Part shown: in pieces, positions 1,584 to 3,554 of the stretch
Layout: every line of letters begins with the position of its first letter
How positions within the stretch are numbered: position 1 is the stretch's first letter
Source: Candidatus Methylomirabilota bacterium
Lineage (GTDB): Bacteria; Chloroflexota; Limnocylindria; Limnocylindrales; CSP1-4
Reading direction: 5' to 3'
Assembly: GCA_035490155.1 (NCBI GenBank)
Contig: DATHGS010000534.1
Coordinates: 1-25,095, forward strand
DNA: 25,095 bases
Program-made: the position numbers and the translations under genes
The notes under the pieces: model-generated
What the model saw: only the letters and a program-made list of their open reading frames with translations
Databases searched by the model: none
What the model was told of the DNA's origin: nothing

Positions 1584-3554
1584 TCAGGCGGGATCGGCCT
1601 TCTTGCGAGTGGCACGGCGCTTGGGCGCCGCATCCGGCGAGGATTCACCGGCCGGACCGGCCGATGCCTCCGCCGCTGGCTCGGCCGTTGTCGCCTTCGA
1701 CCTGGTCGACGCGCGCCGCTTCGGGGCCGGAGCGTCGGTCGCCGACTCCGAGGCCGCGGTGGCCTCGGCGGTCGCCTTCGTCCGGGTCGAGGCACGGCGC
1801 TTCGGGGCGGTCGCCGTCCCACCGGTGGGTGCTGCCGAGACGTCCCCAACGAGCGCCTCGGCTGCCTCGGACCCTCCGCTGCTTGCCGTCGAAGCCGTCC
1901 GACCCGTCGGCTGGCGGCGGGTCGTCGCTCGGCGCTTCGGGGCTCCGTCGGGCGACGCCGCCCCTGCCGCCGCCGATTCGGCCGCGGAATCGACAGTTGA
2001 TGTCGAGCCAGTCGGTGCCGGACGCGGCGCTGCCTTCGGCGACTGGGCAAGCTGCGCTCGGAGCATCTCCTGGAGCTCCTCGGGGACCTCGCTCCACGGC
2101 TCGCTCGAGCGGGCCGGCCGGTCGGAACGCTCCGGGCGATCCTGGCGTTCGAACCGTTCGGGTCGCTCACCGCGCCCGAATGCCGGTTCCTGCGGACGGC
2201 CTCCGCCGCCGCTCGGACGACTACCCTGCGCACCGGTCCTGCCGCTCACGTCGGGATAGCGATTGATCCCGCCGCCACCGCCACGACCGTAGCGCTCGCG
2301 ATCGACGGCCGCGCTGTACCCGGCGCGACCGCCCCGCGGGCCGCCGCGATTTGGCTGACCGCCGCGCGGTCCACCGCGAGACTGCTGGCCGCGCCGCTGC
2401 TCGGCGATGAGGTACTCCGGGATCTCCGGCTCGTCGAAGTCCTCGTCGTCATGGATGGGTGCGGGAAGCTTCGAGGGAGCCGCACTTGGCACGCCGAGCT
2501 GGGAGTCCCAGACCGAGCCGAATGGCGTCGGCCGGGGTGCCCGACGAGCCGCTGCTGGCTGCTCGAGCGCGTCCTCTTCCTCGTCCTCCTCGGTGGGCTC
2601 AGCGGCATCGAGCGGGGCCGGCGTGTCGCCGGGCTCCGGGGCGAAGCCGTTCTCCAGCTCGCGACCCCGGCCGCGGCCGCGACCGCGGCCACCGCGACGG
2701 CGGCGGCGCCGGCGACCCTCGGAATCCACGCCGTCGTCTTCGCCGTCGCCCTCACCGTTCGGCGCCGTCGAGCGTCCCTCGCTGGGCTCGACCTCCCCGA
2801 CAAGCTCCGCTGCAGCCGGAGCCACCCGCGACAGCTTTTCTCCCGGGAGGACCGTCAGGCTGCCAGCGGACGCCACTGGGGCGAGCTCCGGCTGGGCCGC
2901 GATCCTGGCCGGCCGGCCGCGAGCTACGACGGGCTCGGCCTCGCCGGCCCGGCCGCGACCGCGTCCGCGACCACGTCCGCGACCGGCGCCCGTCCCCTCG
3001 GTCTGCTTGTCAGGGACCTCGGTCATCGACAAGTCCTCGTCGTCACCGGCTACCCGCCGGCCCGAGCGCGACGAGCCCTTCTCGACGCGAGCGAGCTGGG
3101 TGATGTCGGTGAAGATGTCGGCGACCTCGATCAGGTCTGACGAGGTGTTCCCGCGAAAGCTGATGACCTCGACCCGAACGCCCATCTCCTGGACAGCCCG
3201 GATCGCCGGCGCAAAGTCACCGTCGCCGGAGACGACGATCGCGACATCGAGGTTGCGAGCCGTCTTCATCATGTCGACGACGAGCTCGATATCGAGATTC
3301 GCCTTGACCTTGCCGTCGCCGTACTTGCGGATGTCCTTGCTGACGACCTTGTAATTGTTCCGCGCGAGGAACGAATGGAAATTGCGCTGGTTCTCGTTGT
3401 CCGGGTCGAGCCCCGTGTAGGCATAGGCGCGCACGAAGTCGCGACCCGCCGTTGCCGACTTGAGTAGCGTGACGTAATCGATGTCCACGCCTGCGGCCTT
3501 TGCCGCGTAGAAGATGTTCGCCACGTCCACGAAGACGGCGACGTTCTTTCCCAC
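1584..3554 (-). CDS. NYN (LabA/DUF88, PIN-like) domain putative ribonuclease with a ~490-aa low-complexity C-terminal tail
   Basis: GTG start with GGAG SD. The first ~160 aa contain VFVDVAN, KANLDIELVVD and VSGDGDFAP, with the catalytic acidic residues intact. The rest is RG/RGG-rich, acidic and Ala/Pro/Thr-rich. Confidence 0.9.
   Translation of the reverse strand: MGKNVAVFVDVANIFYAAKAAGVDIDYVTLLKSATAGRDFVRAYAYTGLDPDNENQRNFHSFLARNNYKVVSKDIRKYGDGKVKANLDIELVVDMMKTARNLDVAIVVSGDGDFAPAIRAVQEMGVRVEVISFRGNTSSDLIEVADIFTDITQLARVEKGSSRSGRRVAGDDEDLSMTEVPDKQTEGTGAGRGRGRGRGRGRAGEAEPVVARGRPARIAAQPELAPVASAGSLTVLPGEKLSRVAPAAAELVGEVEPSEGRSTAPNGEGDGEDDGVDSEGRRRRRRRGGRGRGRGRGRELENGFAPEPGDTPAPLDAAEPTEEDEEEDALEQPAAARRAPRPTPFGSVWDSQLGVPSAAPSKLPAPIHDDEDFDEPEIPEYLIAEQRRGQQSRGGPRGGQPNRGGPRGGRAGYSAAVDRERYGRGGGGGINRYPDVSGRTGAQGSRPSGGGGRPQEPAFGRGERPERFERQDRPERSDRPARSSEPWSEVPEELQEMLRAQLAQSPKAAPRPAPTGSTSTVDSAAESAAAGAASPDGAPKRRATTRRQPTGRTASTASSGGSEAAEALVGDVSAAPTGGTATAPKRRASTRTKATAEATAASESATDAPAPKRRASTRSKATTAEPAAEASAGPAGESSPDAAPKRRATRKKADPA

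Follow-up and report, generated by a model that had tools for sequence, protein, structure and literature searches.

A LabA-like NYN nuclease with a conserved, charge-patterned disordered tail in Limnocylindrales: a putative RNA endonuclease with RNase E-like anatomy

Here we report the analysis of a gene for a NYN nuclease that carries a long disordered tail, found in a 25,095-nt stretch of DNA (the window; contig DATHGS010000534.1, positions 1 to 25,095 of the forward strand) from the assembly GCA_035490155.1 of a Candidatus Methylomirabilota bacterium, which GTDB places in the Chloroflexota (Limnocylindria; Limnocylindrales; CSP1-4). The gene encodes a LabA-like NYN domain followed by 501 residues of predicted disordered sequence, and orthologues occur in the genome's own family (f1), in a small-genome sister family (f2) and in a third family of the same class (f3). 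The explanation that we favour, with confidence a little better than even, is that the protein is a single-copy housekeeping RNA endonuclease whose tail binds RNA through basic modules and docks partners through short conserved islands. Full-text literature searches on NYN, disorder and ribonuclease, on Limnocylindria ribonucleases, and on NYN, LabA and endoribonuclease returned no description of such a protein.

Nuclease head and disordered tail

The gene occupies 1584..3554 on the minus strand as one intact open reading frame of 656 amino acids plus a stop codon, with a GTG start, a Shine-Dalgarno sequence (AAGGAG) 6 nt upstream and a G+C content at third codon positions of 0.68-0.90 along the entire frame. 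The host assembly amounts to 2.78 Mb in 591 contigs and is 73% complete; all 21 orthologous frames that we looked at are open. A preliminary description of this DNA had presented the gene as a NYN nuclease fused to an RNase E-like disordered scaffold, and every motif string that it quoted was found in the translation (RGRGRGRGRGR, R7GGRGRGRGRGR, EEDEEED, DDEDFDEPE, LTVLPGEKL, PFGSVWDSQLG, PEIPEYLIAE, WSEVPEELQEMLRAQL and an RGG box). The gene and the parts of its product are as follows, with AF2 standing for AlphaFold2 and pLDDT for its predicted local distance difference test score.

1584..3554, minus strand: whole gene for the NYN nuclease and its disordered tail (translation of the open reading frame, Shine-Dalgarno sequence, full-length orthologues at 67-76% identity)
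3102..3545, minus strand: NYN/LabA-like PIN-fold nuclease domain, residues 4-151 (Pfam, likeness to 2QIP, AF2, Foldseek)
2997..3071, minus strand: Island 1, SRSGRRVA...DLSMTEVPDKQTE, residues 162-186, directly past the fold; kept in f1 and f2 and partly in f3
2949..2981, minus strand: first RG run, RGRGRGRGRGR, residues 192-202
2823..2858, minus strand: island LTVLPGEKLSRV, residues 233-244, conserved within the genus
2661..2714, minus strand: Arg run and RG box, R7-GG-RGRGRGRGR, residues 281-298, a predicted polyanion (RNA) binding site
2571..2591, minus strand: acidic block EEDEEED, residues 322-328, with a net charge of -10 in its 20-residue block
2493..2525, minus strand: island PFGSVWDSQLG, residues 344-354 (orthologue alignment)
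2388..2450, minus strand: acidic block and island EPEIPEYLIAEQRRG, residues 369-389, f1 identity 0.99, with a predicted helix at 380-390
2325..2378, minus strand: RGG box, residues 393-410, four RGG in 18 residues
2238..2300, minus strand: island RERYGRGGGGGINRYPDVSGR, residues 419-439, after the predicted helix 411-421; f1 identity 0.97
2112..2171, minus strand: ERP/DRP alternating-charge repeats, residues 462-481
2034..2099, minus strand: island PWSEVPEELQEMLRAQLAQSPK, residues 486-507, with the best-predicted tail helix (492-504, pLDDT 81) and a counterpart in f2
1596..1943, minus strand: C-terminal basic module of four APKRRxxTR repeats with an Ala/Ser/Thr/Glu-rich spacer

The intact NYN/PIN-like domain named in the preliminary description is borne out by its profile match, its modelled fold and its acidic residues. 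Pfam NYN (PF01936) matches residues 4-151 over the full length of the model (E=5e-35; 121.5 bits against a cut-off of 24.2), and the nearest solved protein by sequence is VPA0982 (PDB 2QIP; E=4e-17), on whose Asp residues D10, D88, D111 and D113 align. These four aspartates, predicted ligands of the metal ion, are invariant in 45 members of f1-f3 (alignment A1); in 47 wider homologues (alignment A3) each is either invariant or conserved to at least 90%. An AF2 model of residues 1-190, built from 47 diverse homologues, has a mean pLDDT of 82, with 10-residue blocks at 65-97 over residues 1-160 and a sharp drop past residue 158. Foldseek with the NYN model placed 2QIP first (E=3e-14, TM-score 0.85, root-mean-square deviation 2.1 Å), followed by the MARF1 NYN domains of mouse and human (TM-score about 0.7) and after these only generic Rossmann-like folds; in the AF2 model and the Foldseek comparison the fold is PIN-like alpha/beta, with no helical insert, as in 2QIP. 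Since profile, fold and the four aspartates all agree, the domain fits every testable trait of a LabA-like NYN nuclease, and the head is most likely a metal-dependent endonuclease with RNA as its presumed substrate. It shares domain family, fold and acidic residues with the LabA-like NYN proteins (PF01936, NYN.COG1432; VPA0982/2QIP, LabA of Synechococcus elongatus). Those proteins, however, are about 160-250 amino acids long and consist of nearly the domain alone, whereas here some 500 conserved disordered residues have been added; the nearest NYN homologues outside f1-f3 (40-50% identity) are 180-330 amino acids long.

The preliminary description had proposed an HMM scan as one check, and Pfam returned NYN only, with no match beyond it at E<=0.1 in the 656-residue protein; an NCBIfam scan gave sub-threshold matches only. 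Ala, Arg, Gly, Pro, Glu and Ser make up most of the tail, and hydrophobic residues account for 10.6% of it, compared with 36.8% of the NYN domain. With 81 basic residues to 76 acidic ones, the tail has a charged fraction of 0.31 and a net charge of +0.01 per residue; these charges are segregated 7.2 standard deviations above the mean of 1000 shuffles, none of which reaches the observed value. In the full-length AF2 model pLDDT lies below 50 over nearly all of the tail and no folded region is present, the exceptions being short helices at residues 380-390 (pLDDT about 60), 411-421 and 492-504 (81). Composition, charge segregation and low pLDDT thus agree with the earlier picture of a tail that is disordered and charge-patterned.

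Conservation, selection and distribution

A search of the genus gave a match in 20 of 24 genomes, or 19 of 23 if the unpublished genome G010 is set aside; this tally alone rests on G010 and every other claim made here is independent of it. Full-length orthologues make up 16 of the 20 matches (630-706 open-frame residues, 67-76% identity, no internal stops), the remainder being matches to part of the query (G008, G010, G013 and G022), and the four genomes with no match are 58-76% complete. Among good genomes the gene is present in 17/17 of f1, 3/3 of f2 and 20/20 of f3 (40/40 in total), with one PF01936 gene per genome. The protein is about 455 amino acids long in f2 and about 470-510 in f3. 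Metagenomes hold more than 2300 long homologues, labelled only as "NYN domain-containing" or "LabA/DUF88".

An alignment of 21 orthologues resolves the tail into about ten islands with 85-100% identity within the family, separated by linkers with 38%. The R6-GGRGRGRG box (R282-R296) is invariant in 45/45 aligned sequences from the three families, across which the NYN domains themselves are only about 65% identical; over the whole Arg run and RG box identity is 1.00 in f1 and 0.90 in f2, and the box also occurs in f3. In the region of Island 1 (residues 156-189; pLDDT <50) identity is 0.95 in f1 and 0.72 in f2, and the f3 counterpart reads MSAPxMPAKEV. The acidic string DDEDFDEPE (residues 369-377) opens the block that holds island EPEIPEYLIAEQRRG, the VPEY[LM] core of which is kept in f2; segment 162-186 and helix 486-507 likewise have recognisable f2 counterparts. 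In f3 the Arg box is retained, along with four APKPRR repeats and a motif of acidic/hydrophobic character.

The C-terminal module, with its repeats at residues 538-549, 583-594, 610-621 and 643-653, has equivalents in the APKPRRxRSxRPK repeats of f3 and the Lys/Ala/Pro repeats of f2, and in the 73%-complete genome the NYN-tail gene is the sole open frame with more than one copy of the APKRRxxTR motif. The only tandem repeats at the DNA level in the tail are short 6- and 12-nt codon repeats; unlike those of f3 orthologues, the APKRR repeats here do not stem from recent duplication. One of the latter (L026 in G062) carries four near-identical 27-residue repeats around APKPRRARSARPKAKA, and their near-identity suggests a recent tandem duplication of the basic module; the protein closes with a conserved C-terminal EGIWxRFRSxR motif, which f1 lacks.

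Nei-Gojobori ratios of non-synonymous to synonymous divergence (dN/dS) are 0.02-0.10 for the NYN domain and 0.41-0.77 for the linkers; those of the islands are 0.04-0.09 at a dS of 0.7-0.9, where the low dN is partly circular because the islands were picked by their conservation, and the high dS is the independent part. The preliminary description had named orthologues that generally lack the tail, or that show no conserved islands in it, as grounds for giving up its reading, and the alignment revealed the opposite: orthologues keep the tail, with conserved islands, under constraint as strong as that on the catalytic domain, amid divergent linkers. Judged by this pattern of sequence conservation, the tail is a functional, selected part of the protein.

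Metatranscriptome contigs from four studies match the NYN region as well as some stretches of the tail, and one run yielded a 936-nt contig that bridges NYN domain and tail (2484-3413) and carries a 6-nt insertion in frame. Such contigs are weak evidence because RNA libraries may hold DNA and the contigs derive from mixed relatives, and those parts of the tail that they leave uncovered carry no meaning.

Proposed RNA binding and partner docking, and the comparison with RNase E

In the mechanism that we favour, the basic modules (the RG run, the R6-GGRGRGRG box, the RGG box and the four APKRR repeats) would hold RNA multivalently, and the RNA so held would be fed to the exposed active site of the NYN domain. 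The acidic blocks would hold the tail close to neutrality and might pair with basic blocks of the same or of another molecule, and the approximately ten conserved islands, with their three predicted helices, would serve as docking sites for protein partners. The RNA substrate, RNA binding by the basic modules, partner docking and any higher-order assembly are what we infer.

The RNase E scaffold is disordered and contains conserved microdomains of 20-70 amino acids, with basic RNA-binding segments among acidic parts (PMC7613265). The likeness of our protein to that scaffold, as found in the E. coli degradosome and in Caulobacter BR-bodies, lies in a nuclease head with a long disordered tail of basic and acidic stretches and short helical microdomains, and a disordered tail with conserved microdomains and basic segments, which is a functional feature of RNase E and does not speak to homology, is indeed what we found. 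The protein is non-homologous to RNase E, since no RNase E/G catalytic domain (PF10150) was found in it, and unlike that of RNase E its tail contains no recognisable membrane-targeting helix, nor a recognisable site for a helicase, enolase or PNPase. An RNase E-like logic on an unrelated head is partly supported, in that the anatomy fits; an organiser of a degradosome or condensate, as proposed in the preliminary description, is a hypothesis drawn from this resemblance. A more specific version, which we regard as possible but doubtful, is that, in these bacteria without RNase E, the protein serves as a hub of RNA decay whose tail brings RNA and such enzymes as RNase J, RNase Y, PNPase or a helicase together in a condensate or a degradosome-like assembly. 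The RNase E design would then have been invented independently on an unrelated nuclease.

A stricter form of the idea would have the charge-blocked tail phase-separate with RNA, as an equivalent of the BR-body. The net-neutral, charge-segregated tail (z=7.2) with its multivalent RG and RGG motifs is consistent with this, and the C-terminal intrinsically disordered region of Caulobacter RNase E drives condensation (PMC11321048). The argument is nevertheless purely one of sequence resemblance, many charge-patterned disordered regions stay unseparated in cells, and in f2 the orthologues are shorter by 200 residues, with most of the acidic blocks missing, so that we consider a dedicated condensate organiser highly unlikely.

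The preliminary description had also suggested looking for RNases E, Y and J. A search for RNase E/G (PF10150) gave nothing in the genome itself, in four relatives that are 92-93% complete or among 60 good genomes of the class, and across the Chloroflexota a match above the threshold turned up in 1 of 111 good genomes; all five genomes checked have RNase Y and RNase J at normal lengths. These two Firmicute-type enzymes are the usual decay nucleases of bacteria that lack RNase E, and a NYN-tail hub would have to operate alongside them. Because RNase E/G is absent from nearly the whole phylum while the NYN-tail protein is confined to three families, the latter is not a specific substitute for RNase E, and a lineage-specific compensation in which it replaces RNase E was rejected. 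What stands of the "non-homologous RNase E-like scaffold" is therefore the anatomy, the disorder, the islands and the failure to find RNase E/G; its role as a specific RNase E substitute falls away.

A second point of comparison is the joining of NYN to OST-HTH/LOTUS domains, in bacterial LK-nuclease and OST-HTH proteins and in animal MARF1, an architecture that has been predicted to act as a stand-alone RNA degradation system (PMC5499597). The likeness would again be that of a NYN domain with an RNA-binding appendage, but our protein has neither an OST-HTH/LOTUS match in Pfam nor a folded region in the tail, and its RNA binding would rest on disordered RG/RGG motifs and basic repeats instead of OST-HTH. 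Closer to hand, the NYN-tail gene is missing from two further families of this class (0/19 good genomes of f54 and 0/1 of f55), which encode instead a single divergent NYN protein of 550-615 open-frame residues (L083-L087 in G241, G244, G245, G251 and G272), with one RG-rich (RGG) box past the domain and another at the C-terminus. As in f1-f3, this is the only NYN gene in each genome. Its NYN domain is far more divergent (Pfam E about 1e-14, against 1e-36 here), its middle region of about 250 amino acids appears non-repetitive, in contrast to our low-complexity tail, and the gene does not lie beside holB. The two designs seem to exclude each other in the genomes checked, which fits a common role as RNA-binding nuclease and does not imply orthology of the two genes. 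The f54/f55 protein makes a NYN domain with an RG-rich appendage a recurring theme.

These comparisons bear on a simpler explanation, possible though in our judgement unlikely, in which the protein matures or degrades a specific stable RNA (rRNA or tRNA) or acts on ribosomes, with the tail as a mere tether to nucleic acid or ribosome. RG/RGG motifs and basic repeats would by themselves suffice for RNA binding, the f54/f55 counterpart manages with just two short RGG boxes, RNases Y and J are available for bulk decay, and bacterial NYN genes have been tied by gene neighbourhood to tRNA and rRNA processing (PMC5499597). A tether of this kind, however, does not call for ten islands, several of them acidic or hydrophobic and not basic, at dN/dS <0.1 and with three predicted helices; such islands exceed the needs of a generic RNA tether and are typical of protein-docking motifs.

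Several observations count against the RNA endonuclease with docking islands that we favour, beyond the partial circularity of the island dN noted above, which belongs among them. No partner motif was recognised in the tail islands. The absence of RNase E/G is a trait of the phylum and does not track the NYN-tail protein, and RNases Y and J might themselves provide the scaffold. Repeats of the Lys/Ala/Pro and KRR types are found, too, in DNA-binding tails of other bacteria, and the only conserved genomic link of the gene is to holB, a replication gene, and not to genes of RNA decay. Finally, Matelska et al. (2017) noted that the nuclease function of bacterial LabA-type NYN proteins had not been studied in any case (PMC5499597).

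A NYN nuclease with an RNA-binding appendage is of a known kind, and what is new is the use of a long conserved disordered scaffold as the appendage. Scaffolds of the degradosome type have been described for RNase E and, in a looser sense, for RNases Y and J. Independent acquisition of the head and mosaic tail by a NYN nuclease would, if borne out, suggest that the design is a general solution for the organisation of RNA turnover, and it would provide a first mechanistic handle on the large uncharacterised bacterial LabA/NYN family, with the sharply bounded islands as ready-made probes for partner hunting. Chloroflexota of the Limnocylindrales type are soil and freshwater bacteria, abundant in soils and lakes, and we know of no cultured representative; the protein thus offers one of the rare points of entry into the RNA biology of this lineage.

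Gene neighbourhood and further observations

The gene is the second in a same-strand row of four (GNAT acetyltransferase, NYN, holB and acylphosphatase) in which no terminator-like site was found. Families f1 and f3 conserve the row in full, and f2 the NYN-holB pair. The neighbours are as follows.

3617..4294, minus strand: GNAT acetyltransferase, the upstream neighbour (Pfam PF00583), separated by a 62-nt gap; conserved in f1 and f3
305..1576, minus strand: holB, DNA polymerase III delta prime (Pfam PF13177), starting 7 nt past the NYN stop codon
2-304, minus strand: acylphosphatase, last in the conserved row

A long alternative frame at 305..2233, which overlaps the 3' end of the NYN gene, was rejected as a high-GC artefact upstream of the true holB start.

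The conserved adjacency to holB is the basis for a minority reading, decidedly unlikely in our view, in which the protein is a DNA nuclease at the nucleoid or replisome, removing primers or flaps, held by a histone-like tether and co-expressed with delta prime. The pair is conserved in three families (with the 7-nt gap in this genome) and the row is free of terminator-like sites. The C-terminal repeats of f2 are rich in Lys/Ala/Pro, and the DNA-binding tails of actinobacterial HU and topoisomerase I resemble them. The RGG boxes are nonetheless typical RNA binders, the f54/f55 NYN gene does not lie beside holB, and holB operons commonly contain unrelated housekeeping genes. PIN-like folds do include FEN-type DNA nucleases, but NYN domains lack the helical arch of FEN (PMC5499597), and the nearest characterised structural relatives of our domain, the MARF1 NYN domains, are RNA endonucleases.

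A further idea, suggested by the island EPEIPEYL within residues 369-389, is that the protein is tethered to the divisome or membrane by mimicking the C-terminal peptide of FtsZ and docking on FtsA. FtsZ of the lineage ends in DDLEIPSFLRRK, the island reads DEPEIPEYLIAEQRRG and FtsA is present; moreover, the loose pattern [DE]x[DE][IVL]Px[FY][LM] occurs in four open frames of the genome, of which two are FtsZ and one holds this island. About three matches to so loose a pattern are, however, expected by chance. On a position-specific scoring matrix built from 18 Chloroflexota FtsZ tails (profile D-[IV]-P-x-F-[LI]-R-[RKN]) the island scores about 0 bits, against 25-34 for the FtsZ copies and more than 12 for nine chance sites, and the invariant Phe of FtsZ and the Arg-Arg that follows are not kept. 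On this score we rejected the island as a close FtsZ-tail mimic, and a divisome tether is hardly credible. A complex prediction for FtsA (residues 1-392, 33-row alignment) with tail residues 356-398 scored 0.00, which speaks neither for nor against binding. The assembly has two full FtsZ genes, on C590 (3759-5093) and C176 (3953-5341), with the C-terminal peptides DDLEIPSFLRRK and VDLEVPSFLRRRRPTDP; the presence of two copies reflects either a paralogue or the 4.4% contamination.

Other Chloroflexota encode long NYN proteins of several designs. The NYN domain stands at the C-terminal end of frames of 660 amino acids or more in L030-L033 and L037 and is fused to TPR repeats in L034, and these were rejected as relatives of the tail on account of their different architectures. 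L035 and L036 are N-terminal-NYN proteins of 590-755 amino acids with an Arg run, ERxDR and basic C-terminal KPKK/KPRR repeats reminiscent of the tail; a reading of the two as NYN-LOTUS proteins was dropped, as Pfam sees NYN only.

RNAalifold on a 75-nt NYN leader predicted no pairs, that is, no conserved RNA structure. Before the NYN Shine-Dalgarno sequence lies a GGATAAC-GGATAAC direct repeat that is specific to this genome. The leader (3555-3616, minus strand) also contains a block, AGC[AT]GCG, about 35-45 nt before the start codon, which is conserved in f1 and f2 despite the different upstream gene in f2.

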